35,819 nucleotides of DNA from Blastocatellia bacterium. GTDB taxonomy: Bacteria; Acidobacteriota; Blastocatellia; UBA7656. The notes below the pieces were generated by a model. It saw only the letters and a list, made by a program, of their open reading frames with translations. It was not told the DNA's origin and did no database searches. Of the stretch, positions 11,513-34,509 are shown in pieces (the stretch's first letter is position 1; every line of letters begins with the position of its first letter). Where the stretch lies: NCBI GenBank assembly GCA_041497455.1, contig JBGQGO010000003.1:1-35819 (forward strand). The letters are read 5' to 3'. The translations under genes were made by a program, and so were the position numbers.

Positions 11513-11530
11513 AACGGGTTCCTTCCGGCG

Positions 11531-11887
11531 CTACACCCTGCGCGAGAGCTCGGCTGTCCTGAGTTCATTCGTGCGCCGCACCAGATAGCTCAACTCGAGG
11601 CTGAGCGTAGACTCTTCAGCGGTGACTTCGAGCTTCTGCAATTCGATCAGGTCGCCAAGCCATCGCTGAATTGCCGCCTGAACCGCCCCTTGCAGCGTAC
11701 TCGCCAGCTCCTTGCTATTCGGCGCAAAAACCATTTTCAGCAGCCCGGAGCCGAAGTCAGGCCGATTGACCCGTTCGCCCGGGCTGGTGAAGAGCAATTG
11801 CTCGAGCATGTCTCGGATGTGATCGTCGTCGCCGGTCGTGGCTGTGCGCCCGCGACCGTCAAAATGAAACGGGAAGTCAATGTTCAT
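11531..11887 (-). CDS. GPW/gp25-family baseplate protein (Afp9-like), 118 aa
   Basis: MNIDFPF..HIRDMLEQLLFTSPGERVNRPDFGSGL. ATG at 11887 overlaps the previous stop (TGATG); the track ORF 11531..12211 is over-extended. Confidence 0.92.
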   Translation of the reverse strand: MNIDFPFHFDGRGRTATTGDDDHIRDMLEQLLFTSPGERVNRPDFGSGLLKMVFAPNSKELASTLQGAVQAAIQRWLGDLIELQKLEVTAEESTLSLELSYLVRRTNELRTAELSRRV

Positions 11888-12207
11888 CACGTCCCCTTCA
11901 CTCGCACTTGAGTAACGATAATGTTGAGCGGCGTCCCGGTTGGCACGCAAACGGACTGGCTGTCCTGCAACAGCACTGGCACGCTGCCCGCGCGCACGCG
12001 CGTGGCGGCGGTGACCCATTGCGCCGTGGCGCACGGCGGACTCGGCACGGTGGCAAGCGCGCAGCCGGCGATCACGTACTGGCTGGTCTGCGTCACGATC
12101 GGCTGTCCGCTTACGGTCACGCGCGGATTGGTCACGACCGGCTGCGCCTGCCCCGGCGGATGCGAGCACAACACGGTCGCGCCCAGATGCAATAGGAAGC
12201 CTGGCAT
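11887..12207 (-). CDS. PAAR-like (DUF4280-type) spike tip protein (Afp10-like)
   Basis: GATVLCSH, RVTVSGQP, GC...PC..AQW, RV...PVLL..S.SVC pattern; lies between the spike and gp25 genes. Confidence 0.8.
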   Translation of the reverse strand: MPGFLLHLGATVLCSHPPGQAQPVVTNPRVTVSGQPIVTQTSQYVIAGCALATVPSPPCATAQWVTAATRVRAGSVPVLLQDSQSVCVPTGTPLNIIVTQVRVKGT

Positions 12208-12705
12208 TCAAATCACCTCCAGCGCGCCGTTATTGATCGAAACCTGTGGTCCCGTGAGCTTGATGCTGCCGCCCATCCCGTTGTTGATCTCGATTCCGGT
12301 GGTGTCAATCTTGATCTTCATCCCCGTCTGCGTTTCGATGGTAATGCCGCCCGCTCCGGGCAGATCGTTGATCGTGATCGTAGCCGTGTCGGTCTTGAGA
12401 ACTTTCATCTCGGCAACCGCGGGTGAGACGGGCAGCTCACCCTGGGCCCAGAAGCCGCCGGCCCAGATCGGATACTCGGGATCGCCATGTTCAAACTCGA
12501 CCCAAACCGAAGCATCAGTCGGCGGAATCAAGAACAGACCGACACCGTTTCCGGTATAAGGCAGCGCGGGCATCGCCCAGCCGCTTTCGTTGTCGCCAAA
12601 AACGTCCGGCACTTTCACGCGCAGCCGGCCCAGCATCAAAGGGTCGCGGTTGTCAGTGACCTTGCCGCGAAACTTGCCGAAGAATGGTGGTCCTTGCCCG
12701 TTCAT
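12208..12705 (-). CDS. Gp5/VgrG OB-fold spike protein (baseplate assembly protein V)
   Basis: FFGKFRGKVTDNRDP..LGRLRVKVPDV, GWAMP and VWVEFEHGDPEYPIW.G motifs followed by a short beta-repeat. Confidence 0.92.
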   Translation of the reverse strand: MNGQGPPFFGKFRGKVTDNRDPLMLGRLRVKVPDVFGDNESGWAMPALPYTGNGVGLFLIPPTDASVWVEFEHGDPEYPIWAGGFWAQGELPVSPAVAEMKVLKTDTATITINDLPGAGGITIETQTGMKIKIDTTGIEINNGMGGSIKLTGPQVSINNGALEVI

Positions 12706-12721
12706 ATTCCGTTCGCTTCCT

Positions 12722-13846
12722 TCAACTGAATTGCGGCACGACCAGCGGCGTCAGCGACCCGTGCCCTTCGCGCGTCAGAGTGAAACTTTGTTTGTATTCG
12801 CCGCGCCGGATTCGATGCGTCACCTGCTTGACGTAGTAGTTGCCGTTGTAGCTCGCGCCCACGCCTCGCACGCCTACCAATCGCCGCGAGCGCAGCGCCT
12901 GTCCGTAACGCACCGCGTCGATCTCGCCGGTCGCGGTGATTGCGTCCGACGATTCGGACGTTGACGATAGCGCCCGAAGCAGGCCCTGACCTACATCGAG
13001 GTTGGCGGTGTCACGCGAAATGGAGCTCCGCAGCGCCGCCGCCGGACGCGACGCAAGCGGCGGACGCAACCCGCTTGGCGCCGGAATCGTTATCGGAGTC
13101 TTGGTGATCGGGTCGAGAATAGTGATCTTCGGCGCGACCGGCCCGAGCGCGTTGAAATGAAAATTGATCGGCGAGTCGAGGTTGGTCTGCGGCCCCATGT
13201 TCATCGACAGCGCGGGCTGCGGTAGTCCCAGCCGGTTATCAAGCCCCCAGTAAGCCTGGCTGATGCCCGGCGCCGGAGTCGGCTCAGTGTAAAAGACAAA
13301 TCCATTGCGTGTGGCCAACCGCCGGATGTAAACCAGGTCGGTCTCCTGTTGCGATGGCACTCGATTGATCTCGATCGGTACATCAGTCGTTGGTGTGACT
13401 TTCGGAACGAGGCCGAACTTTGTGTAGTTCGCGAGCAGCTTTGTGACGATAATCGAGTCCGGCTGGTTGGGATGCGTGTCGCTCTTTGGATCCAGATCGA
13501 GCCTAAGACTGATATCTTCGCCGGTGATTACCAGCGTCGATTCGCCGGGCCGGTTGCTCGGCACGACTTGATGGCTGGTGATGATGCCGTCAAGCAGCAC
13601 TTCCGGCAACACGCCCATCAACACCGCGATGACGATACGATTGGGCGGATCGAAATAGCCGTTTCGCAGCAGCCCGTAATCGAGCAGCGAGTCTTTCCCC
13701 AAGCTGAAAGTCATCTGAAACCCGTCGCGTTCGGTATCGTTGTTGCTCACCTCGAGACTGACGAACGACTCCATCACCTCATAGGGCGCGGGGCGCGGCA
13801 GGTTCGCGCCGATCAGCAGTTGTAGTTTTACCACAAGATCAGGCAC
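12722..13846 (-). CDS. Baseplate hub / late control D-like protein (gp27-like half of Afp8)
   Basis: QETDL.YIRRLA.RNGF and VGVRGVG..YNGNYYVKQVTH.I motifs; synteny between LysM and spike. Confidence 0.8.
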   Translation of the reverse strand: MPDLVVKLQLLIGANLPRPAPYEVMESFVSLEVSNNDTERDGFQMTFSLGKDSLLDYGLLRNGYFDPPNRIVIAVLMGVLPEVLLDGIITSHQVVPSNRPGESTLVITGEDISLRLDLDPKSDTHPNQPDSIIVTKLLANYTKFGLVPKVTPTTDVPIEINRVPSQQETDLVYIRRLATRNGFVFYTEPTPAPGISQAYWGLDNRLGLPQPALSMNMGPQTNLDSPINFHFNALGPVAPKITILDPITKTPITIPAPSGLRPPLASRPAAALRSSISRDTANLDVGQGLLRALSSTSESSDAITATGEIDAVRYGQALRSRRLVGVRGVGASYNGNYYVKQVTHRIRRGEYKQSFTLTREGHGSLTPLVVPQFS

Positions 13847-13850
13847 GTCA

Positions 13851-14144
13851 TTAACCTCCTGTCGGCATCGGAATCTTCAGCCGGCGCCCGATCTCTTCGG
13901 TCAATTCATCGGGCCGCATCGCGTCGTTTACATCACACACCTGCCAGAACTGCTCCGGATCCCCGAGGTACTTCGCCGTAACGTTGTCGAGCCGGTCGCC
14001 TTCTTCGACTTTGTGTTCGGCGATGATCACCGCCCCCGCCGAAGGCGGCAGAAAACGCCGCCGCAGATAGACGATCTCTCGTTGATCGGCGGTCACGTAT
14101 TTCACAATCTCGACGGAGTAGTAACGACTGGTTCGTGGAAACAT
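13851..14144 (-). CDS. LysM-domain baseplate protein
   Basis: HKVEEGDRLDNVTAKYLGDPEQFWQVCDVN...GRRLKIP. Confidence 0.88.
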   Translation of the reverse strand: MFPRTSRYYSVEIVKYVTADQREIVYLRRRFLPPSAGAVIIAEHKVEEGDRLDNVTAKYLGDPEQFWQVCDVNDAMRPDELTEEIGRRLKIPMPTGG

Positions 14145-14209
14145 CTTTTCACCTCAATGGTCGAACACATCGGAAGCGAGCGCGCCGCCGTGCGGCCCGC
14201 CGCTTCGCG

Positions 14210-14866
14210 CTAGAACAGCTTCATGGAAGCGCTCAGGTTCACTGCGCTGTTGGCTATATTGGCATTGGCCAGCACCTCTTTGGCGATGTGGTGCGCCAGG
14301 AAAAGCTGGTACCCCGGGTTAGTCACCTTCAAATCGAAGTAGCTGAGCACTTGCAACGTCAGATCTACTTTGGCGCGAATCGGATTTAGCAGCGTGTCGT
14401 AAGCCTCTTCGGTGATGCTGAGACTGGTGATCCGCACCGGCACCACCCGCGCCGGTCCCCAGAAGAACAGCGTCAGCGGAGCCTCTGGCGGAATGATTTC
14501 GAGAATGCCGGTCAGCGCCAGCGCCGTGTTGGCGATGGTCAGCGCGCTCCCGGGATAGAGCAGCATCTCGAGCGCCGCCAACGTCGGATGAATCCCCGAA
14601 ACGACAGCCAGCGGATTGCCCTGCTCGAGTTGATCCGTCGCGTCGATCTCGACGCTGAGCGTGATCGTCTCCTTGGGCGGGCCGGTGAGCCGAAACGCTT
14701 CCGAGCGGTCGGCGTTGTCGCCTCCTCCGCTTGACCGCGCATCAATTCGCCGCGTCAACGAGTCGGGGTTGTATTGAAACACCACGACACTGGCCAGCGG
14801 CTTGAGCGGGTCGAGCCCGATGATTGCGCCCTTGAGGAGACGCGGTGAATTTGGGAATGTGCTCAT
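14210..14866 (-). CDS. CIS tube-initiator protein (Afp7-like)
   Basis: VVFQYNPDSL.R, LFFWG..RVVPVRIT.LSITEEAYD..LNPIRAKV.L.L.VL motifs. Confidence 0.85.
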   Translation of the reverse strand: MSTFPNSPRLLKGAIIGLDPLKPLASVVVFQYNPDSLTRRIDARSSGGGDNADRSEAFRLTGPPKETITLSVEIDATDQLEQGNPLAVVSGIHPTLAALEMLLYPGSALTIANTALALTGILEIIPPEAPLTLFFWGPARVVPVRITSLSITEEAYDTLLNPIRAKVDLTLQVLSYFDLKVTNPGYQLFLAHHIAKEVLANANIANSAVNLSASMKLF

Positions 14867-15100
14867 TACTTTTCTCGCTTCGATCTGCGGGCGTTCCTTC
14901 GTCCCGCACAGTTCCTAGCTGTACTTTCGATCCTCGACTCGCAGCGCGGAGGTTGCTTGATCACCGGCTCCACATAAGTATCAACGGCTTCCGTCTAGCT
15001 CAGGTCACCTGGCTCTGCGCCGGTCTGCCCCCCATAGTTTGTTTCATCTCAATAGATTTGAAGTTGCGAGTTCATCAACCGTTTCATATGTTCCTCATCC

Positions 15101-18082
15101 CTATGGCGCGCCTGACGCGCCGAGCGGCTGCAACCGGAGGGCGACCGGCATCGTCCCAGTCTGGGGCTCGTTGGGGGAAACGCCAGGGGCAACGACGAGC
15201 TTGCGGACCTCGGGGAAGATGGCACGTGCGAAGGCCTGGGTCTCAGGCGTATCAATCTCGGCAAAGCCAGTGTTCAAAACGCGGATCGCACCACGCTGGA
15301 GGTCACGAGTGTCGAGAATCACCCGGCCGGTCGCGACTTCGACACTGATCCGGAGAATGACCTCGCCGCGCATAATAGGCCCGGTGCGATGGGACAGCGC
15401 GATCTGCCGAACCGCATCGAAATAGGCAGTGCGAGGAAGACCGCCGGCTTGTACCCGCGGCACCGCACCCTCGATGTCGAGGAACTCGGCGAACAGCGGA
15501 ACGCCACCAGGGCCAACGAAGTCAATGGGCGTCGCGCCGCGCAACATCACGGCCCCGGCATCGCTGCCGGTCGCCGGTCGTGAGGATACGTTAAACGAGC
15601 CTGAGCCGGTGATGCTGCCGCTCGCAGTTGACGACCAGTTTGCATTGAGTCTGAAAGTAAGGCGTAGTCCGCCCAGGAACTGAGTCGCGCCGTGCGTATC
15701 AGGCGCCGGTGGGTTCCTGCGGCGCGCAACCACCCAGGTGTTGAAGTCGAGCACTCGGCTGCCGCGGTCGGGCACGTTATTGCGCAATGGCGCTTGCCTG
15801 CGCTGTTCAGCCTGGATATCCGCCGACGGCGTGTTTGCGGGAAGTAGGGGTCCTAAGAGCGGTTGGAAAGTTGGCCTCTCGAGCGTAACGTCCCGCCCAC
15901 CGCCTGGCCGCGGCACTTGTATGCTCTGGACGAACAGACTCGACGGGATGTCGGGTAGAAACCGGAAAGCGCGGAAATTAGGCGCGTCTGTAAGCGAGAC
16001 CGGGTTCGCCCCGGGTGCGGCGGCTACCTTGGAGTTTGTGTTGAACCACGGCGGTTCGCTCAGGGGATCATTGCGCCGCGCCCCGTCCCGCAACGGCAGC
16101 GGGAAGCGGCGACGTTCCCGGCGGCCATCAACATGCGTGTTGATCCAGTTCTCCGCCATGACGGTCTGGACGAAACCGATCTCGAAGTTGGCAATGCTCG
16201 CGGGCGCTCCGGCAGCATCAACGGTGGCATCGACCACGAAGGGAGAATCAGGCTCGATGCCGACCGTGAGGGGATTGGAAGACGGTGAGGGAACCGCCGC
16301 CCCACTTGTGCCGGAGGAAAGCCCCAGCGAGGTGACGGTGAAATTCGGTGGCGTCTCCATCGTCGCCGGGCCTCGCTGTCCGGCGAGCGGGCCGGGCAAC
16401 GGCTGGTCGGCGCAGCGGGGAATGAAGCCGCTGAATGGATCGACAGGGTTCGGTCGCGAACGGACATCAAAGCTGGTGTTCAGCGGATCGAGCGAGATGC
16501 GGCATTCTGGAAACCCTGCAAGGTGGACGAGGTGCATCCCGGCGCGGTGCTGATCCTCGAAGTTCGACAATACGGGCCGCGAGAAATGATGAAAGGTGAG
16601 ATCGGTGATGCGGTTGGCGGCACAACCGATCGGATCTGTGGCGTCGGCAATTCTGCGCGAGATGACGATGGTATTGGCGCCAGTGCTCGCAGTGGTGCCT
16701 AGCTCAACAGAGGCGCTAAGGCTGGTCTCCGCGCCTTCGATCAGCACCGACGTCCGGGCAACGGCCTCTCCCAGCGTGCGCCAGCGGCCACAACTCCAGC
16801 GCGCGAAATAGGCGTCAGCGGCAAGCGGATAGTCGCCGTTTTCGAGCCGCTGCTTGGCCAAATTGCGGATCTGCGACATTGTCATTCCCGTGGCGTCGAC
16901 ACGCGGAGCCTGCTGCGGGGGATCGGCCTCGATCACGGCAACGCGATTGAGCGGCCGCGCTGCTGCGCCGACGCCGAATCTCTCGGTCGGCCCCTTCGAC
17001 ACCGCTTCGATCTGTTGCTCCTGGACGCCGAGGTTCACCATCTCGCGGATCATTCGGTTCAGCCGGTGGCAGCTCAGATTACGGTTGTACAGCGTGGCGT
17101 TCTGGGCGGTCCCCGGCCCCTCGATGCTGGCATAGGCGCGCAAGCGAAAGCTCGTCCCTGACGGCTGGCCGCTGACCAGGGTCCGCAACTGACCCAGGTC
17201 GGCAGGGTCGCTTAACACGTCCGAGTCGCTACAGAACTGGAAGACGTTGCCGTCTATGTCCTCACCATCTTCGTTGCAGGGCGGCGTCGGCGCAAGGTTG
17301 CCGAGACGCGTCGGGGTGCGTGGGCAGTGCGGCTCGCTGAGCGCGGTGGGATCGATGTTGACGTCTGGGACTGGAAGGCCGGGGCGCGTCGGTTGAGTGC
17401 TGCCCGAACCGGGACGGGTGATGAAGTCTTCTTCCTCCTGACGCTGGACGAGCCCGATTGCTGAAGGCTGTTGGGTATGTAGTTCAAAAGCATTACCCGT
17501 TACAATAGCGTTCGCAGCAGCCCGGGCTTCGTGTTCCGAGTTTTCACTAGGATGGGTCGTCCGCAATTCGCTTGTCCCTCCGCTAGCGTACGCCTGCTGT
17601 TGAACAACGTGTGCCAGCTCATGCCCAAGCAACTTACGCCCTTCGGTTGTCCAAGGCTGGTATTTCCCGTCTCCAACTACCACGTCACGCCCGACCGTGT
17701 ACGCCTGCGCATTAATAGCCTCTGCAGATTCTGCTGCAGGTGCGTCGGCATGAACCCGCACTTTGCTGAAGTCGTGCCCAAACCGTGGCTCCATGAAGGC
17801 GCGGGTGCCGCCATCGAGCGGTTGACCGGGCGAGCGCAGCACGTCGTGCACGATTGCCGGGACCTCAGGTTGAGCTCCGGTTTTTTCGCCTGCGCCCGCC
17901 GGGCTACGTTGCAGTGTCCGTCCCTTATTGCATTCATTACAGTTGCCGCCGCCGATGGTGTGGCTCCCACATGCACACTTCCGCTGCAACCTGCCGTCGC
18001 GCGCCGCGATGGAAAGCGGCGGCGAATTCTTTTGAATCGTTGATCCGCTGTGTCTGCTCACTAACATGCTTCTGACGTTCAT
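15101..18082 (-). CDS. DUF4157 cargo protein 5 (993 aa): Cys4 leader, DUF4157, OmpA-like domain, FAM78-like C-terminal region
   Basis: LQRKCACG..C..C; RFGHDFSKVRVH..AYTVG..HELAHVVQQ; OmpA-like AYASIEG..YNRNLSCHR..KGPTE..NRVA. Confidence 0.85.
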   Translation of the reverse strand: MNVRSMLVSRHSGSTIQKNSPPLSIAARDGRLQRKCACGSHTIGGGNCNECNKGRTLQRSPAGAGEKTGAQPEVPAIVHDVLRSPGQPLDGGTRAFMEPRFGHDFSKVRVHADAPAAESAEAINAQAYTVGRDVVVGDGKYQPWTTEGRKLLGHELAHVVQQQAYASGGTSELRTTHPSENSEHEARAAANAIVTGNAFELHTQQPSAIGLVQRQEEEDFITRPGSGSTQPTRPGLPVPDVNIDPTALSEPHCPRTPTRLGNLAPTPPCNEDGEDIDGNVFQFCSDSDVLSDPADLGQLRTLVSGQPSGTSFRLRAYASIEGPGTAQNATLYNRNLSCHRLNRMIREMVNLGVQEQQIEAVSKGPTERFGVGAAARPLNRVAVIEADPPQQAPRVDATGMTMSQIRNLAKQRLENGDYPLAADAYFARWSCGRWRTLGEAVARTSVLIEGAETSLSASVELGTTASTGANTIVISRRIADATDPIGCAANRITDLTFHHFSRPVLSNFEDQHRAGMHLVHLAGFPECRISLDPLNTSFDVRSRPNPVDPFSGFIPRCADQPLPGPLAGQRGPATMETPPNFTVTSLGLSSGTSGAAVPSPSSNPLTVGIEPDSPFVVDATVDAAGAPASIANFEIGFVQTVMAENWINTHVDGRRERRRFPLPLRDGARRNDPLSEPPWFNTNSKVAAAPGANPVSLTDAPNFRAFRFLPDIPSSLFVQSIQVPRPGGGRDVTLERPTFQPLLGPLLPANTPSADIQAEQRRQAPLRNNVPDRGSRVLDFNTWVVARRRNPPAPDTHGATQFLGGLRLTFRLNANWSSTASGSITGSGSFNVSSRPATGSDAGAVMLRGATPIDFVGPGGVPLFAEFLDIEGAVPRVQAGGLPRTAYFDAVRQIALSHRTGPIMRGEVILRISVEVATGRVILDTRDLQRGAIRVLNTGFAEIDTPETQAFARAIFPEVRKLVVAPGVSPNEPQTGTMPVALRLQPLGASGAP

Positions 18083-18123
18083 CCTATGCGCGCAATCGGC
18101 GGCGCGCGTTCAACCCGCTTGCA

Positions 18124-18831
18124 TCACATTACGCATCGATCCCCTCCGGCCAGGTGACCGATCACATTCGTCATACAATATGGATTCGTTATCGCCTCGA
18201 AGCTTCCCATCGAGCCGCAATGCTCCGAATTCATGACGTCCGGCGTGGGATGATCCATTTGAAAAAGCGGAGCGTGAAACAATTCATGAGTCAGGATTAG
18301 AGCCCGTAACACTGAATTGGTTCGCGCTGGGTCGATGGTCTTGGGACAGATCCTAATTCGCGTGTCCTCGAACCTCGCGTACGCAAAGTTGTTTCCCAGT
18401 TTGCAGATCTCATCATCGGGTCCGGCAAAGAAAAATGGCGGCACAGTCATATTTTGGTTCTCGATCATCAAGGCCCTGGCCCAGCTCACCAATGGGCAGA
18501 ATGAGCTATCTGTCGGAAGCGTTCCGAGCCATGAAACGAAGGGCCTCAAGTCGTGACCGAGGCGCGACTCCATCAAGGCGCGTGTGTTTGCATCGAGCGG
18601 CCGTCCCGACGAGCGCAAGGTCGCATGCACAATCGGCGGCGCTTCTCTTGGCGTAGTTTGTTCGCCGATGTGAGCCGAACGTTGGAGTGTCTGCTGCTTC
18701 TTGCTGCACTCTGCGCAATCGCCGCCGCCCACGGTGTGCTGGCCGCAGGCGCACTTGCGCTGCAACTGGCGGACGGCCGGTTGAAAGCGGCCGGTGCTGT
18801 TTTCTTTTTGATAGAAACCTGTCTGCCGCAT
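18124..18831 (-). CDS. Cargo protein 4 (~235 aa): Cys4 leader and truncated DUF4157 joined to an HEXXH metallopeptidase-like (M35/aspzincin-like) C-terminus
   Basis: Start MRQTG at 18831 aligns with the paralogue starts. DUF4157 similarity stops at RLGHDL; then IRICP..LILTHELFH..EAITNPY. Confidence 0.7.
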   Translation of the reverse strand: MRQTGFYQKENSTGRFQPAVRQLQRKCACGQHTVGGGDCAECSKKQQTLQRSAHIGEQTTPREAPPIVHATLRSSGRPLDANTRALMESRLGHDLRPFVSWLGTLPTDSSFCPLVSWARALMIENQNMTVPPFFFAGPDDEICKLGNNFAYARFEDTRIRICPKTIDPARTNSVLRALILTHELFHAPLFQMDHPTPDVMNSEHCGSMGSFEAITNPYCMTNVIGHLAGGDRCVM

Positions 18832-18959
18832 TTCTTGCCTTTGACGCCTCAGTCTATGTCTTCGACCGGTTAGCGCGGGCACTTCCATGCTTATAGTCGG
18901 CGCCCATACTCGGCGCTCCGTTGCTAATGGGATCGCCGCCAACGAGACTTTTTGATCCA

Positions 18960-19889
18960 CTAGCGCGGCCGAAGATTTACCCTTCCTGAAGCCTCGCAGT
19001 CGTAAACATATTCGCGGCGGGGACCCCCATCCACCCCGCGTTGTCTGGCTATAACGAAGTTGGGTACTCTAGCCAGACTCACGCCGATACTTGTGCCATC
19101 CGGATAGGTCACAAAACACAACCTGTTATCGCCCTGACACTGAATGTCGGCCATTGACGGGGCTCCACCCAACTCAGTGCTGTAGTAGAAGTCCGCAATC
19201 ACCTTGCTAAAGCTCTGCGGGTCTGATTCCCAACCTGCGCATGCATTGTTACTTTGACCGGGCGCCGGCTGTCTTTGCATGAGCTGCCCCGGAAGACCGG
19301 ACAACGCGAACTCATTTCGTCCGGCGGCCGGCCCGTTGCGTACGACGGTGGCGGCCACGGCATCCGCCTCTCGCTCATGAGTATCGCCCGGCTCGGAGAT
19401 CCGGAATGTCCGCAGTTCGGCGCTTTCTCCGGCTGATTGTTGCTGGACCACATGGGCCAACTCATGCGCCAGAAGCATTCGTCCCGAGTAGGTATGCGGA
19501 GCAAATTGACCGGCGTCGAATACGACTTCCCGGCCGACTGTATAAGCCAGCGCATTTGTCGCTCGCGCCGATTCGGCCGCCTTCGCGTCCGCATGCACGC
19601 GCACGCCACTGAAGTCGTGGCCAAAGCGCGGCTCCATGAAGTCGCGAGCGGCTGCGTCAAGAGGCTGCCCCGGCGAGCGGAGCACTTCGTGGACGATCGG
19701 CGGCACTTTGTTTGGCGTTTCACTGCTCGATGCCATGCGCTGCATGAGACCCTTCTTCCTCTCGCAGTCTGAACATCCGCCTCCCGCGATAGTGTGTTGC
19801 CCGCACGATGCGCACTTGCGTTGCAATACGCCTTTCATCGCAAGCGCCGGCTCGCGTGCTGTTGCTCGCATTGTCTCTCGATTGCTCAC
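18960..19889 (-). CDS. DUF4157 cargo protein 3 (309 aa) with a small Cys-containing C-terminal domain
   Basis: LQRKCASCGQHT, RFGHDFSGVRVH, HELAHVVQQ and EREADAVA motifs, then a unique ~100-aa tail. Confidence 0.88.
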   Translation of the reverse strand: MSNRETMRATAREPALAMKGVLQRKCASCGQHTIAGGGCSDCERKKGLMQRMASSSETPNKVPPIVHEVLRSPGQPLDAAARDFMEPRFGHDFSGVRVHADAKAAESARATNALAYTVGREVVFDAGQFAPHTYSGRMLLAHELAHVVQQQSAGESAELRTFRISEPGDTHEREADAVAATVVRNGPAAGRNEFALSGLPGQLMQRQPAPGQSNNACAGWESDPQSFSKVIADFYYSTELGGAPSMADIQCQGDNRLCFVTYPDGTSIGVSLARVPNFVIARQRGVDGGPRREYVYDCEASGRVNLRPR

Positions 19890-19912
19890 GAGGTTTTCCT
19901 TTTACGCATCTT

Positions 19913-21757
19913 TCACTGGATGTAGCTAAACGCCGGATAGTCCCGGACGAGTGCAGCATGCAACTCACTCGGCAGTGCGGAGACTCTCTCCGTCACCCGG
20001 ATGTTCCGCGCGGTCGAAAAATTAGTGGCATCGCGAAACGAGTGCTCGACGTCGATGCCTACGTGGTAGAGAGTGCGATAGTCGCGAATCAAATATATCT
20101 CGAAGCGCGCGCGAGAGATGACGCTGCGGGCGCCGAGACCGTACTCACGAGTGACGAGCGAGCGGAGCGGCGTTGGGGCGTCGGCGATCATCGTCAGGTC
20201 CGGCTCGCGTCGCGCGGTCGAGGTGCTGGCCTCATAGAAGGGATCGGTCGCCGAGCGGCTATCGACACTGTAGTTCCGCGGGCCGTTGTTCGTCGTAAGG
20301 GGATAGGTTCGCGCGCCGATCGTCACTGTGTCGGTCAGCCAACGGTTAGCGCCGCTCGCGTCGGTGACCTGGACCTCACGCCAGATGAACTGCAGCCATC
20401 GGGAATCCGCGGCGAGGCCGCCGCTGTAGGCCACTGCAAACGATACTGAGCTGGTCCCCCCGCCTGGCGTCGTATACTGGACGGCGGTCAGCGCGCTGAC
20501 CCGACCACCTTCAACTGTAGGTGGCGGTGTCGCGGGAGGAGTGCCGCTGCCGGGAACGGTCTGGAAACTGCCGCTTGGTGAGGCCGGGGGTGGCGCGTTG
20601 AGAAGGTAGAGGGCATAGGAAAGTTCGTCGCCGCTCATCTCGTTACGGATGTCATCCTCCAGCGCCCGGCCGAAGATCCGTTGGTAGGCCGCTTTTAGCT
20701 GCGTTGACAAAGCTGCGTTGCGGTTGAGTGGCAACAGAGTCGCGTAGACGGCCTCCTCGTCTGTTCCAATTTGGCCTGTCATCGCAGCCTCCAGCCGGCG
20801 GGCTGCGGCGTCGAATTGGGCCTGAGTGCTCGGAGGCCCTGTCGCTACCGCGCGACCGCTGGCCGGGTTGATACCCAGCAGCTCAAGAGCGAAGTCAAGC
20901 TCGCTGCCACTCATCTCATCCCGAATCTCCGTCTCCAGGTCGTGGCCATATCTGGTCTGGTAGGTGCTGCGAAGAGTGCGGATGGCGGCCGGATCGCGCT
21001 CAAGTTTCTGGAGCGTAACGTAGATCAACTCCTCATCCGTGCCCCAACGTGCCATCGCACTGTTCAGCGCCTCGGCCATCGCAGAAAAGTCCAACGTCGT
21101 GAGGGCGACCCGAGCAAGCACTGGTGACGCGAGCGCACCGCCCTGCTGCGCGACATGGGTGAGTTCATGCGCGAGCAGACGCCGCCCGACCGCTGTGTCG
21201 GGTGCGTACTGGCCGGCCCCAAATACAATGTTGCTGCCCACCGTGTAGGCCGCCGCGTTTACCGCTCGTGCGGAATCCGCGGCTTTGGTATCGGTATGGA
21301 TGCGCACCTGGCCGAAATCAACGGCACTAGCCGCAGGCTTCGCAGGCTTGGGTACGGGCGCTCGCGTGACGAATTCGGCGTTGCGCTCGGCCGCCTGCTC
21401 GAAGTCATCATCAGGAGTGCTGATGTCCAATGCTGTCGGCATCGGCTGGGCCGCGGACCGGTGGACGTTCACTTGTGTGAAGTCGTGCTCGAAGCGCGGC
21501 TCCATGAACGCGCGTGTTTCCAAATCGAGCGGCTGCCCGGAAGAGCGCAGCACTTCATGGACTATCGGCGGCACTTCGCCAGGCATTTGTTTGCTCGATG
21601 CGTTGCGCTGCATCAATCCCTTATTCTTAACGCACTCCGAACATTCGCTGCCGCCCACGGTGTGCTGGCCGCAGGCGCACTTGCGTTGCAGCATACCGCT
21701 CATCTGCAATGGTGCAGGCGGGGATACCATTGCTCGAATTGTCTCTCGACTGCTCAT
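19913..21757 (-). CDS. DUF4157 cargo protein 2 (614 aa) with two annexin-like repeats and a beta-rich C-terminus
   Basis: HELTHVAQQ; WGTDEELIY..YQTRYGHDLETEIRDEMSG and IGTDEEAVY..YQRIFGRALEDDIRNEMSG match the annexin repeat pattern. Confidence 0.88.
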   Translation of the reverse strand: MSSRETIRAMVSPPAPLQMSGMLQRKCACGQHTVGGSECSECVKNKGLMQRNASSKQMPGEVPPIVHEVLRSSGQPLDLETRAFMEPRFEHDFTQVNVHRSAAQPMPTALDISTPDDDFEQAAERNAEFVTRAPVPKPAKPAASAVDFGQVRIHTDTKAADSARAVNAAAYTVGSNIVFGAGQYAPDTAVGRRLLAHELTHVAQQGGALASPVLARVALTTLDFSAMAEALNSAMARWGTDEELIYVTLQKLERDPAAIRTLRSTYQTRYGHDLETEIRDEMSGSELDFALELLGINPASGRAVATGPPSTQAQFDAAARRLEAAMTGQIGTDEEAVYATLLPLNRNAALSTQLKAAYQRIFGRALEDDIRNEMSGDELSYALYLLNAPPPASPSGSFQTVPGSGTPPATPPPTVEGGRVSALTAVQYTTPGGGTSSVSFAVAYSGGLAADSRWLQFIWREVQVTDASGANRWLTDTVTIGARTYPLTTNNGPRNYSVDSRSATDPFYEASTSTARREPDLTMIADAPTPLRSLVTREYGLGARSVISRARFEIYLIRDYRTLYHVGIDVEHSFRDATNFSTARNIRVTERVSALPSELHAALVRDYPAFSYIQ

Positions 21758-21910
21758 CGGCTATTCCTTCACCAGTCGTCGCGTCACTAGCCCCTTCGTC
21801 ATAGCCCTCGCATCTCGGCTACCAGCTCCTTTCACAAGGTGCGGTGAGCTGTTACGCACTCATCGTTTGCCGTATTCGACTGCAATCCGGAGCGCTCCTG
21901 GTCTTCGTCC

Positions 21911-22252
21911 TCAACGGGAGATCAGGTCCTCCGTTCCCTCGAGTATCTCCAGTGCTCCCGCTTTGACAGCGGCATTCAGAATCGCGTTTGTCTCCTCATA
22001 TCTGTCTTCGGGAACGGTTAGATATATCCGAATCTGCCGTCCCGGAAATCCGGCTTGAGGTCGTTCGAGATGAAAGGGAATGCCTTTTGACGATAGCAGT
22101 CTGGCGATGTTGCGCTCATTCTCGGCTGAGTTGCGATAGTCTGCGATGGTCAAGCCCTTCTCAATCGTCTCTTGCCTAAGACTGGGCCCGTCATACGCAA
22201 GCAGTCGTCTGATGGCATCGTTTTGGCTATCTATCTCTTCATCCTCACTCAT
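21911..22252 (-). CDS. Small hypothetical protein (~113 aa); candidate immunity or accessory factor
   Basis: AGGAG Shine-Dalgarno before ATG at 22252; co-oriented between cargo genes 1 and 2. Confidence 0.65.
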   Translation of the reverse strand: MSEDEEIDSQNDAIRRLLAYDGPSLRQETIEKGLTIADYRNSAENERNIARLLSSKGIPFHLERPQAGFPGRQIRIYLTVPEDRYEETNAILNAAVKAGALEILEGTEDLISR

Positions 22253-22417
22253 CTGTACTCCTAGCAACCGGATTCCTCACTCACGGCACGTTGCCCGTGA
22301 AGCGCGCCGACAAAGCGCGCCGATCAATCTGAACTCCTCGTGAGAACAAGCGACTCGCTCGCCGGCGATGCGGCGCAACAACCCTCCTGTTTCAAACGCA
22401 CATCGCGGTCTTAACCC

Positions 22418-24193
22418 TCAGGGCCCGCACGACCTGTTGTGCCCCCTAAAGTTATCCGGGACCAGCCCGCCTTGTATGAAAGCTGGCGAGCCATCACCAT
22501 CCGGTTCCGTGACGTTGAGAGCGGTGCTTGTCGGGGTTACGGTTGAGGCACCGCCTGCTGCTGGTACTGCCACATTTGCCGCCCAGTTAATGTCCCAATC
22601 AATATGATGGAGGGATCTGACGCAGCCGCTTGCTTTGTGACGCACCGCAACCCAGGTACGGAACGTGTCTATCATAAACCCGCGCACGAGGGTCGCGGGC
22701 GAAGGCTGGCCCGCGCAGGCGGGGTTATCACTAAGATTAACGAAGGCAAAATCCCGCGGCTTATCGGGCCAGGTCAGGTTAACCGCGGCCCCATTAGCGG
22801 TGAAATCTACCAAGAGACCGGGCAACGACGATGTAACGAAGACGGGGTCATATTGGCCGCCCGAAAGCGAAAGGCCATCCTTGATCGGAAATGGCAAAGT
22901 GGTGCGGATCTTGATCCCGTTGGAGAAGGTATATTCCATAGCGTCGCTGAGCATATTCGAGGCGAAGCCAACCTGAAATTCCTGAGCTTTGGCGTTGCTC
23001 GGCGCGGCGATGGTGATGCGGGGATTGTAGTTTGCTTGAGCGGTGCCTAGCATCTGCAAGACATGTTTGCCGCCTACTACCAGGTCGCGGAGGTTCACCG
23101 ATGGATTTGCGCCCGTGGCGACTTGATTCGCCAGCGCGAAGGTGACGCCTTTGAACGGCGCATCACAAGTCGCCAACTTCGGGGCCGGAGCCGCCAGTGG
23201 TCCTTTGAGCGCCACGGGTCCAACGCCGGTAAGCAGAGTAGTGTCATGCTGGTCCAACAACCCCATAGTTTCCGGGCCCACTAAGCCATCAATCTTGAGT
23301 GCGCCGGCGTCGGTTTGGAACCGTTTCACCGCAGCCTCTGTCTCTGGGCCGAAGATACCATCCGCGCCCCCGAAGGGCAGGGGATAGCCCTGGTCGATTA
23401 GCGATTGTTGGATCAGCCGCACGTGCGTCCCCTGAGAGCCTTTGCTAATCAGTCGTTCGTCGTCGAACGCCGCTTCCAGCCTTTCGTTTCCTGAAAAGCG
23501 CGGTGCTTGTAAATCGTGCCCGTCGCCGATAGTGCGTTGAAGCTGCGCCGTCCGAGCAGCCCCCTCGTTCGACTGCTGAAGCGTGTGCGCCAATTCGTGC
23601 GCGATCACCTTACGCCCCGCACTGGACTCCGGCGCGTATTCTCCTGCGCCGAAGACGATGTGATCTCCGACGGTGTAAGCTTTAGCGTTGACAGCTCTGG
23701 CCGACTCCGCTGCGCGCCCATCGGCATGCACTCTCACGCGAGAGAAATCGTAACTCACAGGGGATTCTGCCCGGGCAGGGGCGCGCATCACGGTCTCTGC
23801 AATGTGATCTGCTTCCAACTCAAAGCGATCTACCGCTGGCCCGACTCTGAGCGCTGAAACGGCACCGTGCGAACGTTCGGAAGTCGCTGGAATGCGCGAG
23901 AAGTCGTGGCCAAAGCGCGGCTCCATGAAGGCGCGCGTTGCTCCGTCGAGTGGTTGACCGGGGGAGTGCAGTACATCATGCACGATCGGCGGCACGCCGC
24001 CGGGGCTTTCAGCTTCAAGTTCCGAGTTTCGAGTTCTGCGTTGCAACGATGAAAGTTTCTGGCCGCATTCGTCACACGAGCCGCCGGCGATCGTATGTTG
24101 CCCACAATCGCACTGGCGCTGAAGAATGCCGCCGGCTTGAGGCGGCGCCGCAGCCGATGCTTGATGCGTCTGAGATGCAGCTTGCCGATTCAT
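22418..24193 (-). CDS. DUF4157 cargo protein 1 (591 aa) with a peptidoglycan-binding domain and FAM78-like C-terminus
   Basis: LQRQCDCGQHT; HELAHTLQQ; PG_binding_1 pattern GSQGTHVRLIQQSL..DGIFGPETEAAVKRFQ..DGLVGPET. Confidence 0.88.
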   Translation of the reverse strand: MNRQAASQTHQASAAAPPQAGGILQRQCDCGQHTIAGGSCDECGQKLSSLQRRTRNSELEAESPGGVPPIVHDVLHSPGQPLDGATRAFMEPRFGHDFSRIPATSERSHGAVSALRVGPAVDRFELEADHIAETVMRAPARAESPVSYDFSRVRVHADGRAAESARAVNAKAYTVGDHIVFGAGEYAPESSAGRKVIAHELAHTLQQSNEGAARTAQLQRTIGDGHDLQAPRFSGNERLEAAFDDERLISKGSQGTHVRLIQQSLIDQGYPLPFGGADGIFGPETEAAVKRFQTDAGALKIDGLVGPETMGLLDQHDTTLLTGVGPVALKGPLAAPAPKLATCDAPFKGVTFALANQVATGANPSVNLRDLVVGGKHVLQMLGTAQANYNPRITIAAPSNAKAQEFQVGFASNMLSDAMEYTFSNGIKIRTTLPFPIKDGLSLSGGQYDPVFVTSSLPGLLVDFTANGAAVNLTWPDKPRDFAFVNLSDNPACAGQPSPATLVRGFMIDTFRTWVAVRHKASGCVRSLHHIDWDINWAANVAVPAAGGASTVTPTSTALNVTEPDGDGSPAFIQGGLVPDNFRGHNRSCGP

Positions 24194-24443
24194 TTCCCAA
24201 TGCCCCCATAGACCGCGCTCGCGATTTGTTGCCCCAACCTGCTCGGGTTGCTGTTACTCGCCAAATAAATATCCGGAGCATGCGTTGAAGCCATTGCGCC
24301 GCCCGCCATCAAACTGTCTGCCAATCCATCGACCCCGAGTAAGCGACTTAGCTCCGCCTCGACAGCCGCCTTCACCAGCGGACCGTGGTGGTGTTCGATG
24401 GGCAATCCATCCAAAACCAATCGTTCGATTTGAACATTGATCT

Positions 24444-24447
<4 letters not shown>
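24190..24447 (-). CDS. Small eCIS-associated hypothetical protein (85 aa)
   Basis: INVQIERLVLDG..AVEAELSRLL..LGQQIASAVY; overlaps both neighbouring genes. Confidence 0.8.
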
Positions 24448-26641
<2,194 letters not shown>

Positions 26642-26645
<4 letters not shown>

Positions 26646-27961
26646 GAGATTGTCACCTTCGGCCCGATGAATTGATTGAAGGTCGAGCTGGCGTTGTTCA
26701 AATCACGCTCCAGCGGGCTCTCCGCGCCATCCACCTGCGTGCGTACCAGATAATCACCGGCCGGTACGCCTTTGATTTCAAAATCGATCGTAGCTGTGTC
26801 CTGCTGGTTGTTGATGGGGTTACCCTGGTTGTCGACGGGGATGCCGTTATCCCTCGGCGCACTAAGGATGAAACTGCGCGGAGCCCGAGTCGCTGGCGGA
26901 TTGAATTCGTTCAACAACAGCGTCACTCGCTGAGACCTGCCGACTATCGGTTTGAAGTTCACGGAGATTTTCCGGGTCACTTGTTGTGTCACAGGATCAA
27001 CCGGTGTTATGAAACTCGGCAGCGCGGGTTGCGTGATGACCGGAGCGAGCACGAACGCCGCGACGTTCGATTCAAAGCCCCGATGCGGCGCGGGCGGCGT
27101 GCCCATCAAAAACTGCTGCTCGACTTGCAAGCCCTGCACGCCGGCGCGCAAGTCGGCGGGCAGCGTCAGTTTAATTTCAGTGTCGGCCACCGACGCGGGG
27201 ACTACCGGTGGCAGCAAGCTGCCACCGAGGCTGACCTGCGTCACATCGCCGGCCAGCGCCCTGCCGACGATGACGATGTTGCTTCCCGACGTAATCGGCC
27301 CGGCAGTCGGGCTGTCCGGCTTGATCTCCTGAATCACAGGCACGCGGAACGGCACCGTGTAAACATTGCGTTCGAGCACGGGGAACGAAGCGCTTGGAGT
27401 GTCATCTGCTTCGATCAACACGACTGTCCCCTGGTATGTGATCGAGAGGGTGTACTGCGTTTGAAAGAACACGGCCCAGAGTTTTGAAAGCTCTTCGAGC
27501 GAAAGCGAAGTCGGCGTGAACTTAACAAGCTCGAGGTCTTCGGCCAGGTTCGATTGCGCCAGAAAGGTCAGTGTGGGGCTGTTGATCGTCTCCCGAATCT
27601 GCTCTCGCGTCAGCACCGGGTGAGAGTGCAGCGCGCGAACCGTGCTGCCCAACAATCGCTGCGGCTCGAACTGCGCCTCACTGCCGTAAAAGGTCAGCAG
27701 GTAATGCAGGTCAAGCGCCGCTCGCGGTTTCTGAATCAGCCTGCCGTCGTCACTGCGCGTCGGCAGATCGGCGTTGCGCCACGCCGCATTCGGCGTGACC
27801 TGATACAAGTAGATGTTGACCCTGGTGCCGGGGACGGGAGCATTGGCGCCATCGGGACGAGTCGTCGTGACCGTCAAGCCGGACACATCTTGCTGCACGA
27901 CGCTCTGAAGAAATTGCGCGAGCGCGGCAGTCACAGTGGCGATGGCCAGATGGTTGCTCAC
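26642..27961 (-). CDS. DUF4255/Pvc16 (Afp16-like) cap protein with C-terminal Ig-like domains
   Basis: MSNHLAIATVTAAL, NIYLYQVTPNAAWRN, LDLHYLLT and LEELSKLW motifs; beta-rich C-terminal half. Confidence 0.9.
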
Positions 27962-34346: not shown

Positions 34347-34509
34347 ATCCTGCTCCTTCTGTAAGGCCGTTATCCAAAGTCGCTGCGGAACCTCATCTGA
34401 GGTCACCTTAGATGATACTTCCCATTCTCTATGACGCGAATTGCGTCCCGGATAATCCAAATAGAGTTGTAAGGAATTCAATTAAAACGACCGAAGAGCC
34501 GGTGAGGCC

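Follow-up and report, generated by a model that had tools for sequence, protein, structure and literature searches.

Organization of the eCIS Locus

The window, i.e., the whole stretch of 35,819 nucleotides analyzed here, carries an eCIS operon of the Afp/PVC-like type, in which genes for the sheath, the tube, gp25, Baseplate_J, the spike, a Pvc16-like cap (Pvc16_N), and a Pvc15-like AAA+ ATPase were identified. The structural genes located with Pfam form one co-oriented cluster on the minus strand, from 8732 to 32355, in which the TIGR02243 baseplate protein was also matched (NCBIfam). An ORF scan showed that the minus strand from 15101 to 24193 is filled by five co-oriented ORFs, P5, P4, P3, P2, and P1, the frames of which are all open (Table 1). 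This array lies between the ATPase gene and orf85 upstream and a second tube-like gene downstream, and the Phage_base_V spike gene (12208–12705) is located two ORFs beyond the latter. These flanks, assigned with Pfam, are those described in the original prediction, which placed some 9 kb of co-oriented paralogs between the ATPase and the spike module.

Table 1. Coordinates and domain composition of the genes in and around the array.
Feature	Positions	Strand	Length	Matches (E-value) and remarks
Pvc15-like AAA+ ATPase	24444..26645	(-)		WHD + AAA; Pfam AAA 1.4e-25, WHD 3.5e-22
orf85	24190..24447	(-)	85 aa	Small conserved ORF; 4-nt overlaps with ATPase stop and P5 start
P5	22418-24193	(-)	591 aa	PF13699 9.5e-32, PG_binding_1 1.3e-12
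P5 module A	23900-24124			
P5 insertion			54 aa	Between modules A and B
P5 module B	23573-23737			With HExxH
P5 PG_binding_1	23255-23431			
P5 terminal beta domain	22421-23221			
orf118	21911..22267	(-)	118 aa	Sixth ORF; orphan, acidic; between P5 and P4
P4	19913-21757	(-)	614 aa	PF13699 2e-33 in two stretches, Annexin 1.2e-18
P4 module A	21479-21691			
P4 insertion			57 aa	Between modules A and B
P4 module B	21143-21307			
P4 annexin repeats	~20603-21079			Two repeats
P4 terminal beta domain	19916-20575			
P3	18960-19889	(-)	309 aa	PF13699 8.1e-31; modules A and B
P3 short CTD	18963-19412		~110 aa	Positions include linker
P2	18124-18960	(-)	278 aa	Later ATG at residue 44 fits family better
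P2 module A	18547-18765			Joined directly to CTD
P2 zincin-like CTD	18127-18546			Own HELFH motif
P1	15101-18082	(-)	993 aa	PF13699 7.2e-32
P1 module A	17768-17989			
P1 module B	17597-17761			
P1 OmpA-like region	~16898-17230			Followed by Cys/His-rich middle
P1 P5-like beta domain	from ~16402			Followed by C-terminal extension
Second tube-like gene	14210..14866	(-)		CIS_tube 3.8e-4, under curated cut-off

Orthologs of the ATPase, which is presumed to be the cargo loader, were present in 32 of the 60 relatives searched. No Pfam or NCBIfam family was matched by orf85, BLASTP matches to which were obtained at the loci of 10 out of 13 relatives, including locus L020, where the slot is empty. The tube-like gene is 97% identical in loci L007 and L008.

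The cassette genes are closely spaced (23 nt from P4 to P3, −1 nt from P3 to P2, and 41 nt from P2 to P1), and 234 nt separate the array from the tube gene. Apart from the five cassette genes predicted, the array contains a sixth ORF, orf118, flanked by gaps of 150 and 153 nt. It matched no Pfam or NCBIfam family, its best Atlas score was 0.77, and no BLASTP match was found in the slots of the relatives: this ORF is possibly an accessory or immunity gene, or no gene at all. Scanning positions 14000–25000 for promoters and terminators yielded no signal (0 promoter-like sites vs. 2.9 expected; 12 terminator-like sites vs. 10.3 expected), and the sigma-54 −24/−12 pattern, with at most one mismatch, gave 0 matches in the whole window (3.3 expected).

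The Shared N-Terminal Cassette

The paralogy of the five genes is clear from the N-terminal cassette they all carry, as originally predicted: the protein alignment contains 31 invariant columns, well above chance, including those forming LQRxCxCGxHT..G..C..C and PxIVH..L.S.G.PLD..R..ME.R..HD, and a direct repeat of 110 nt occurs in five copies, 71–77% identical to the reference copy. The DNA identity between the paralogs amounts to 66–87%. Two modules were distinguished in the cassette. Module A, which is hydrophilic and consists of about 75 residues, carries the Cys4 motif CxCGxHTxxGGxCxxC, followed by LQR and then by PxIVHxVLxSxGQPLD...MEPRFGHDF; it sits upstream of DUF4157 as defined in Pfam, and we have delimited it as a separate module. 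Module B corresponds to the zincin core of DUF4157, including HExxHxxQQ. The pairwise amino acid identities range from 55 to 72% in module A (10 pairs) and from 60 to 71% in module B (6 pairs, four genes).

The PF13699 family (eCIS_core; DUF4157, PVC-metallopeptidase) was matched by P1, P3, P4, and P5 with 106–115 bits, the cut-off being 22, and HExxH is present in each of them. The prediction that all five proteins carry DUF4157 holds for these four, but not for P2, a deletion variant without the HExxH core: no Pfam match was obtained here, and the remnant consists of the first part of the domain only (PLD...GHD).

A search with a 6-row alignment as the query showed that module A is conserved across phyla. 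The site following GHDF, at the junction between modules A and B, coincides with a homology breakpoint, with the 54–57-aa insertions of P4 and P5, and with the start of the P2 deletion. Two details are possibly new: the Cys4 module, which precedes the Pfam domain and is distributed across phyla, and the recombination/indel hot spot at "GHDF".

Turnover of the Array in Related Genomes

In the nearest relative, the ATPase of which is 94% identical, the DNA is about 91% identical over positions 5313–14866 and 23901–27301 of the window, and no collinear DNA match was found across the intervening 9 kb (14867–23900). The breakpoints are at the start codon of the tube gene (14866/14867) and around residue 97 of P5, inside the first cassette: one complete array stands in place of another in loci whose flanks are about 91% identical. 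The slot of the other relatives accommodates anything from no cassette gene at all, as in the otherwise intact locus L020, to four or more, and the C-termini encoded there are different ones, including Aspzincin_M35, YkuD, Peptidase_M91, and DUF922. Arrays of 3–4 cassette genes are common in the bacterial family. A separate regex count of the cassettes missed 19 of the 61 loci, so that its numbers are lower bounds. An APOBEC-like gene was observed in the slot of one relative.

The hypervariability is also apparent from the distribution of the C-termini, which were found in 0, 0, 0, 0, and 2 of the 52 other genomes of the family. Those of P1, P2, P4, and P5 have conserved homologs elsewhere, mostly in proteins carrying PF13699. 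The polymorphic effector array announced in the original prediction is supported by these comparisons, in which the array content was clearly not invariant among relatives, the outcome that had been named as speaking against it. Judging from their sequences, with a constant N-terminus and C-termini differing between close relatives, the five proteins are putative polymorphic toxins in the sense of PMC3482391.

Public contigs showed the part of the array from P3 to P5 to be stable across several samples, which places the turnover between species-level lineages. The contigs of run X7 do not cover 14969–17236 (the C-terminus of P1), while both flanks are covered; contigs of this kind cannot show absence. 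In run X3, the joints linking one paralogous cassette to another (with short sides of 21–35 letters) were set aside, as they are most likely to be repeats or to belong to other organisms.

Domain Content of the C-Terminal Regions

The C-termini, predicted to be all different, do mostly differ, except that P1 and P5 share a homologous beta domain: the terminal domain of P5 aligned with part of P1 in hhalign with a probability of 98.3% (E 1.9e-14), the P1 row having been removed. The 65 relatives of the P5 beta domain all have it at the C-terminus, and PF13699 was present in 20 of the 40 scanned proteins carrying it. Apart from PG-binding-type matches, NCBIfam gave nothing further for P5. The 23 homologs of P1 show 30–83% identity (43–83% in 22 of them), and 22 of the 23 carry PF13699. 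The P1 family profile matched 13 out of 13 OmpA/Pal-type PDB chains, weakly (best E 4.9e-4); PF00691 was found in one homolog, and the single sequence gave no Pfam match. The C-terminal domain of P1 searched as a single sequence matched nothing in the PDB.

The annexin repeats of P4 (PF00191) scored 67.4 bits, the cut-off being 25, in two stretches, and matched annexin XII in the PDB (E 3.3e-22). The family of the P4 terminal domain comprises 30 proteins, 19 of which carry PF13699; none of the 30 gave a hit (E ≤ 0.1) to any of the Pfam toxin families in the library searched, which may or may not include the Ntox3/Toxin_58 model, and a distant relationship to that annexin-linked toxin may exist. 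The AF2 models of the P5 and P4 terminal domains reached pLDDT values of 93.2 and 92.9, respectively. Neither domain matched a PDB structure at E ≤ 0.001 in Foldseek, and VIA-align (wide) returned generic beta-sandwich/Ig-like folds for both, with best Z values of 6.6 and 6.2 for the two models; no known toxin or enzyme fold was matched by the P4 or P5/P1 beta domains. A relationship between the P4 and P5 domains was considered and rejected: their profiles show no similarity (hhalign probability 0.2%), although both are beta-rich and have weak Foldseek rows in common. The P5/P1-type and P4-type domains, both well modeled and of no known fold, invariably accompany peptidoglycan-binding modules and annexin repeats, respectively, and either may carry a new effector activity. 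The recognizable parts of three payloads appear to be binding modules, and their role as toxins is putative.

Since three C-termini carry binding modules (OmpA-like, PG_binding_1, and annexin), the two modeled terminal domains are beta-sandwiches without any enzyme match, and four of the five genes retain an intact HExxH, the DUF4157 zincin itself might be the protease warhead, the variable C-termini serving as address labels to peptidoglycan (P1 and P5) or membranes (P4). The PVC-metallopeptidase is indeed described as sometimes able to act as a toxin domain (PMC3482391). We nevertheless consider this explanation unlikely: P2 has lost the zincin of DUF4157 and has kept a conserved C-terminus with an HExxH of its own, and the slots of the relatives contain clear enzyme C-termini (M35, YkuD, and M91). 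In addition, the toxicity of Cgo1 in E. coli is reported to be independent of the HExxH motifs (PMC8894135), and Cgo1/2 mutants lacking DUF4157 are reported to be still loaded (bioRxiv 10.64898/2026.05.27.728243).

The peptidoglycan-binding modules, present in two of the five proteins, would also suit proteins acting in the producer cell, either by opening or binding its own wall for particle release or as assembly chaperones; eCIS are described as being released by lysis (PMC8213781), and no holin or endolysin was recognized in the window with Pfam. A housekeeping function in release would hardly be exchanged as a block between operons with 91% identity, however, nor should it be missing from the otherwise intact L020. 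No export signal is visible in the hydrophilic N-termini and an annexin payload does not suit a role in release, which makes this possibility quite improbable.

No Pfam or PDB match was obtained with the short C-terminal domain of P3, which was found in none of the 52 other genomes of the family and in 1 of 400 other genomes of the phylum. When aligned with its own homologs, P2 shows the in-frame loss of some 169 residues, the HExxH core among them; the gap begins right after GHD. PF13699 is present in 14 of the 17 homologs of the P2 C-terminal domain, and a public contig of run X7 has 503 extra letters at 18545–18548, in the region of the junction between module A and this domain. The similarity of this domain to Aspzincin_M35 (PF14521) stayed below the cut-off (E 0.15, 13 bits vs. 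30), the Atlas scores of 0.86–0.87 provide leads only, and the P2 family profile matched nothing in the PDB. The natural deletion in P2 suggests that module B may be dispensable.

This large internal deletion, along with the DNA identity of only 66–87% between the paralogs, might mean that the array is the decaying remnant of duplications with little present function. This is very improbable, given that all five frames are open and the deletion is in frame, while P1, P2, P4, and P5 have homologs elsewhere with conserved full-length C-termini; moreover, a public contig of 4320 nt spans P5, orf118, and P4 with 37 differences and 4 gaps.

A Proposed Model for Cargo Loading and Exchange

It seems likely to us that the five genes encode three-part cargo proteins, composed of module A, module B, and a variable payload, which are loaded via the ATPase, injected, and exchanged by cassette recombination. 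The Cgo-type architecture, in which an NTD is followed by DUF4157 and a variable CTD in a protein encoded in the eCIS cluster, is present here, and by analogy with Cgo1 and Cgo2 of AlgoCIS, the five proteins would be cargo of the tube lumen. We infer the loading, injection, and payload action as follows. Module A, together with the N-terminal residues preceding it, would be the loading tag, which the Pvc15-like AAA+ ATPase would recognize and unfold, threading the cargo into the tube lumen; upon contraction, the cargo would be expelled into the target cell. Module B might be an accessory and dispensable part, involved in self-processing and release or in refolding. The payloads of P1 (OmpA-like) and P5 (PG_binding_1), with the same beta domain, would target the bacterial cell wall, that of P4, with its two annexin repeats and another beta domain, might target Ca2+/phospholipid membranes, and that of P2 is a second zincin-like domain. 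The array would turn over as the conserved cassettes recombine with one another, the A|B junction ('GHDF') being a hot spot for such events.

A further-reaching and more tentative proposal is that module A is a metal-binding loading tag used across phyla in a large eCIS lineage, the A|B junction being a built-in recombination/insertion site where whole payload sets are exchanged behind a fixed tag, and the P2 deletion showing that a cargo gene can persist without the zincin core. Such a tag would differ from those described so far, which are disordered and system-specific. According to the PROCIS preprint, loading sequences are disordered and lack conservation from one system to another, whereas module A is conserved across phyla; this module may therefore do something other than loading, or something beyond it.

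The locus provides a base-resolved example of the exchange of eCIS cargo sets between otherwise nearly identical machines, and its short conserved N-terminal module is a possible portable loading tag for the many eCIS carrying it. The accepted view, in which DUF4157 proteins are polymorphic eCIS cargo, is left unchanged: exchangeable injected cargo is part of what was already known, and the completely different sets in close relatives fit it.

Comparison with Known Systems

In AlgoCIS, Cgo1 and Cgo2 (NTD-DUF4157-CTD) are reported to fill the tube lumen and to leave it on contraction (PMC8894135), and their loading is said to require the NTD and the AAA+ protein Alg15, but not DUF4157 (bioRxiv 10.64898/2026.05.27.728243). 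The two systems resemble each other in having tandem genes in the eCIS cluster, an N-terminal tag, DUF4157 and a differing C-terminus, an AAA+ gene in the cluster, and one cargo with a second HExxH in the C-terminus, as in the family of P2. There are two genes in AlgoCIS and five here, and the payloads differ, as do the tags: a Cys4 module conserved across phyla in the present case, as against disordered, system-specific tags, those of Cgo being taken from the preprint's description.

The concept of PVC-metallopeptidase polymorphic toxins was published by Zhang et al. (2012; PMC3482391), who describe an N-terminal zincin that stays constant while the CTD varies, several copies per genome, and recombination, as observed or proposed here. 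According to the same source, toxins of the PVC type are often without immunity genes, and its table lists forms linked to annexin (Ntox3) and OmpA (Tox-OmpA). While that class was defined by its domain architecture, the swap was mapped here to the base between nearly identical operons, and a separate module was delimited upstream of the zincin.

The analogy with Rhs/CDI arrays drawn in the original prediction was found to apply in part. Like Rhs/CDI (CdiA-CT) systems, the array combines a conserved N-terminal part with variable tips, is diverse among close relatives, and recombines at the border between the conserved and variable parts. It differs in that no Rhs/YD or filamentous-haemagglutinin repeats were found with Pfam in the five proteins, nor any PAAR parts, and no toxin gene is directly followed by a cognate immunity gene, the sole extra ORF in the array being orf118, which belongs to no family. 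All five copies are complete genes with a module A of their own rather than silent, promoter-less orphan tips, and delivery would be performed by a free phage-tail-like particle.

Lastly, DUF4157 is known in the N-terminal part of eCIS toxins (EATs), or adjoining them (Geller, 2021, PMC8213781; Danov, 2024, PMC11297309), and 983 of the 1130 DUF4157 EATs are reported to carry no other annotated domain (PMC11297309). The emphasis in these accounts is on toxins at the operon's 3' end (PMC8213781, PMC11297309), whereas the slot described here sits in the middle of the operon, with the ATPase on one side and the baseplate genes on the other.

Organization of the operon and the array

The genome consists of 919 contigs, one of which is the window, and a minus-strand eCIS operon takes up nearly the whole of this contig (Pfam). 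On the ATPase side, a sigma-54 activator and a sheath are followed by a gp19 tube and a T4-baseplate-like gene, then by an unknown gene and a Pvc16_N cap. Next come the AAA+ ATPase, whose N-domain is a winged helix, an ORF of 85 aa (orf85) and the five cassette genes. Beyond the array lie a second tube-like gene and a VgrG-related one, then an OB-fold spike together with gp25 and Baseplate_J; a TIGR02243 baseplate protein, a further unknown gene and DUF6519 end the operon (Pfam, NCBIfam). The array is filled by five co-oriented ORFs transcribed in the order P5, P4, P3, P2, P1, and the packing is tight: the successive intergenic gaps in ATPase-orf85-P5-orf118-P4-P3-P2-P1-tube gene are -4, -4, 150, 153, 23, -1, 41, and 234 nt. 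A sigma-54 enhancer-binding response regulator is located directly upstream of the operon; the -24/-12 consensus TGGCAC-N5-TTGC was not matched with up to 1 mismatch anywhere in the window.

The orf85 gene, which shares 4 nt with the end of the ATPase gene and another 4 nt with the start of P5, belongs to no family found here. Ten of 13 relatives' loci have it, among them one with an empty slot (L020), and its product could serve the loader as a core adaptor. A 118-aa acidic ORF (orf118) lies between P5 and P4 in a lower-GC stretch; neither a family nor a relative was detected for it, the slots of related loci included. It might encode an accessory or immunity protein, or not be a gene.

Positions of the features discussed in the text
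Feature	Locus	Coordinates	Strand
Sigma-54 response regulator	window	32934-34481	-
AAA+ ATPase	window	24444-26645	-
orf85	window	24190-24447	-
Cassette array	window	15101-24193	-
orf118	window	21911-22267	-
P2 deletion site	window	18545-18548	
P1 Cys/His/Asp block	window	16600-16900	
Second tube-like gene	window	14210-14866	-
Collinear with L007, 91.2%	window	5313-14866	
Collinear with L007, 91.6%	window	23901-27301	
316-aa module A protein	L011	2526-3476	+
APOBEC-like ORF	L015	5687-6727	+
1008-aa protein	L010	11604-14630	-
144-aa P3 relative	L084	1477-1911	-
Second eCIS-like locus	L017	G000:C1:1-20000	

The shared cassette

The five co-oriented paralogues with a conserved N-terminal cassette in the original prediction are real: 31 columns of the five-protein alignment are invariant, all within the first 100-160 residues, and a 110-nt DNA repeat occurs in five copies (71-77% identity to the reference copy). 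Module A (LQRxCxCGxHT..G..C..C, LQR, PxIVH..L.S.G.PLD..R..ME.R..HDF) shows pairwise identities of 55-72% (10 pairs), and module B, the zincin core (VRVH...HExxHxxQQ), 60-71% (6 pairs). Since the PF13699 model begins only at 'PLD' (P1 residue 88), the curated domain covers neither the Cys4 motif nor PxIVH; the Cys4 motif is not described in the published DUF4157 passages considered. Insertions of 57 residues in P4 and 54 in P5 occur precisely at the A|B boundary.

Module A was sought with two patterns in one genome per species, which gave 587 stretches, 573 of them confirmed; the best 80, from 61 loci, were kept. Over residues 1-97 or 20-97, these best 80 of 573 share 51-78% identity with the query; their sources are Acidobacteriota, cyanobacteria, Chloroflexota, Nitrospira, Planctomycetota, Verrucomicrobiota, Gammaproteobacteria, and one Methanotrichaceae archaeon, the nearest named loci belonging to metagenome-assembled genomes labelled Acidobacteriota, Blastocatellia or Pyrinomonadaceae. 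The 61 loci hold at least 82 cassettes, a lower bound because the regular expression missed 19 loci; two to four copies are present in 23 of the 42 loci detected. The Cys4 motif occurs in 70 of these 82 cassettes, and the four Cys are kept in all 18 aligned cassettes of the window and its relatives. In 10/82, a long A|B-junction insertion places HExxH 99-144 residues past GHDF, versus the usual ~48. The genome of the window carries a second, divergent eCIS-like locus (ATPase 39% identical), with the order ATPase, 427-aa DUF4157 protein, then Pvc16-like, sheath and tube genes; a pattern search did not find the Cys4 motif in this 427-aa protein.

All five genes had been expected to carry DUF4157, which holds for P1, P3, P4, and P5 (strong PF13699 matches) but not for P2, where Pfam gave no match. 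Compared with five aligned homologues, P2 lacks ~169 residues, namely all of module B and a linker, from right after 'GHD', and a public contig of sequencing run X7, otherwise matching this stretch, has 503 additional letters at the deletion site. On these alignments, P2 is a deletion variant without module B. The deletion is in frame, and the C-terminus, which has 17 homologues (61-87% identity; 14/17 with PF13699, 287-407 aa long), still has a HELFH motif of its own as well as the conserved Cys and His residues. This HExxH motif makes the C-terminus putatively zincin-like; the aspzincin leads are weak. A 316-aa protein in the slot of a relative (L011) shows the Cys4 motif and a module A match, with neither HExxH nor any Pfam match; like P2, it may be a naturally occurring 'module A only' cargo.

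Variation of the array among relatives

The ATPase turned up in 32 of 60 relatives searched, and 13 loci were fetched from these 32. The comparison of related loci supports the polymorphic array originally predicted: in the nearest locus (L007, ATPase 94% identical), the array is replaced between ~91% identical flanks, and only short paralogous cassette matches (66-82%) occur between them. The unmatched stretch extends from the A|B junction of P5 (residue ~97) to the tube gene's start codon, so that the module A of the first gene belongs to the conserved backbone and everything behind it is exchanged. In the L007 slot there are four complete cassette genes together with a fragment of 109 aa and an ORF of 168 aa; its C-termini are unrelated to those of the window, since BLASTP matches stop by residue ~220. 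In the second nearest locus (L008, 85%), with three cassette genes and an M36 peptidase gene, the first gene is P5-like through the insertion and PG_binding_1 but has an Aspzincin_M35 end in place of the beta domain. Other loci contain one to three cassette genes, with C-termini including YkuD, Peptidase_M91 and DUF922, and non-cassette genes are found in relatives' slots as well (S8 subtilase, APOBEC-like and LGT-like). In L020, the ATPase, orf85 and tube gene follow in succession, with only ~100 nt at the array position.

The APOBEC-like deaminase ORF (346 aa, L015) lacks DUF4157 and is flanked by two cassette genes. A 1008-aa slot protein in L010, with two full DUF4157 domains, is either a fused double cargo or carries a C-terminal zincin 'toxin'; the gene ahead of it encodes an S8 subtilase that has P-domains and lacks the cassette.

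PF13699 is present in 44 of the 53 genomes of the bacterial family, the window's own among them. Because 14 of the 52 others carry three or four PF13699 genes within ~11 kb on one contig (hand count), a multi-gene array is usual in the family, and five cassette genes are the top of its range. In searches of these 53 genomes with the individual C-termini, those of P1, P2 and P3 and the terminal domain of P5 were found in 0/52 others, and that of P4 in 2/52 (best 37% identity); the P3 domain occurred in 1/400 other genomes of the phylum. That P3 relative is a stand-alone 144-aa ORF (40% identical), with no cassette and no eCIS genes visible nearby. Decay of the array is a less likely reading, also of the P2 deletion; four payload families have conserved full-length C-termini elsewhere (23 relatives of P1, 29 of P4, 17 of P2, and 65 representatives with the P5 domain).

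Payload domains

The C-termini had been predicted to differ, and no invariant columns occur there, but part of P1 is homologous to the P5 terminal domain (hhalign). P5 carries PG_binding_1, whose PDB relatives are endolysins and cell-wall enzymes, followed by a 267-aa domain, which is C-terminal in 65/65 representatives. Among 40 scanned proteins with this domain, 20 have PF13699 and 19 PG_binding_1 or OmpA; none has Rhs, PAAR or LXG. Its AF2 model is confident and all-beta (pLDDT 93.2, pTM 0.88), with no specific PDB match in structure searches. Since P1 has a weak yet consistent OmpA-like region (family profile), P1 and P5 would be two versions of a wall-binding module plus the same unknown domain. 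That the array proteins serve particle release from the producer, a role with which cell-wall binding might agree, is less likely than a role as cargo. In the middle of P1 (residues ~488-530), a block of Cys, His and Asp residues is invariant in 22 family members (C323, R327, D330, H334, H335, H348, H353, and C363, numbered within the C-terminal part) and may be a metal or active site.

P4 carries two annexin repeats close to eukaryotic annexins, then a 220-aa all-beta domain (model pLDDT 92.9), for which structure searches gave Ig-like matches and nothing more specific. Among 30 members of its family, 23 have annexin and 19 PF13699. DUF4157-annexin proteins with an all-beta 'Ntox3' domain appear in published passages (PMC3482391, table; PMC3894181); none of these 30 members matched a Pfam toxin family at E <= 0.1. 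The C-terminus of P3 gave no Pfam or PDB match, and for none of the five proteins did the searches point to an enzymatic or toxic activity.

Comparison with known systems

In the published sections considered, AlgoCIS tubes are filled with cargo of the same architecture (96% filled in the wild type, 93% empty in the double mutant), and the cargo leaves them upon contraction (PMC8894135); loading needs the N-terminal part and the AAA+ protein, not DUF4157 (10.64898/2026.05.27.728243). The best reading follows that work, and the array genes would encode cargo loaded and expelled as in AlgoCIS. The reverse assignment, with the zincin as warhead and the C-termini as address labels, is less likely; DUF4157 is dispensable for loading in AlgoCIS, which the natural deletion of module B in P2 matches. 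The kind is already known from polymorphic PVC-type toxins (2012), DUF4157 as eCIS marker (2021) and the Cgo cargo (2022, 2026). To the literature considered, this locus adds breakpoints mapped to the base, repeated change at the A|B junction, the conserved Cys4 module, and two confidently modelled putative payload domains without known fold.
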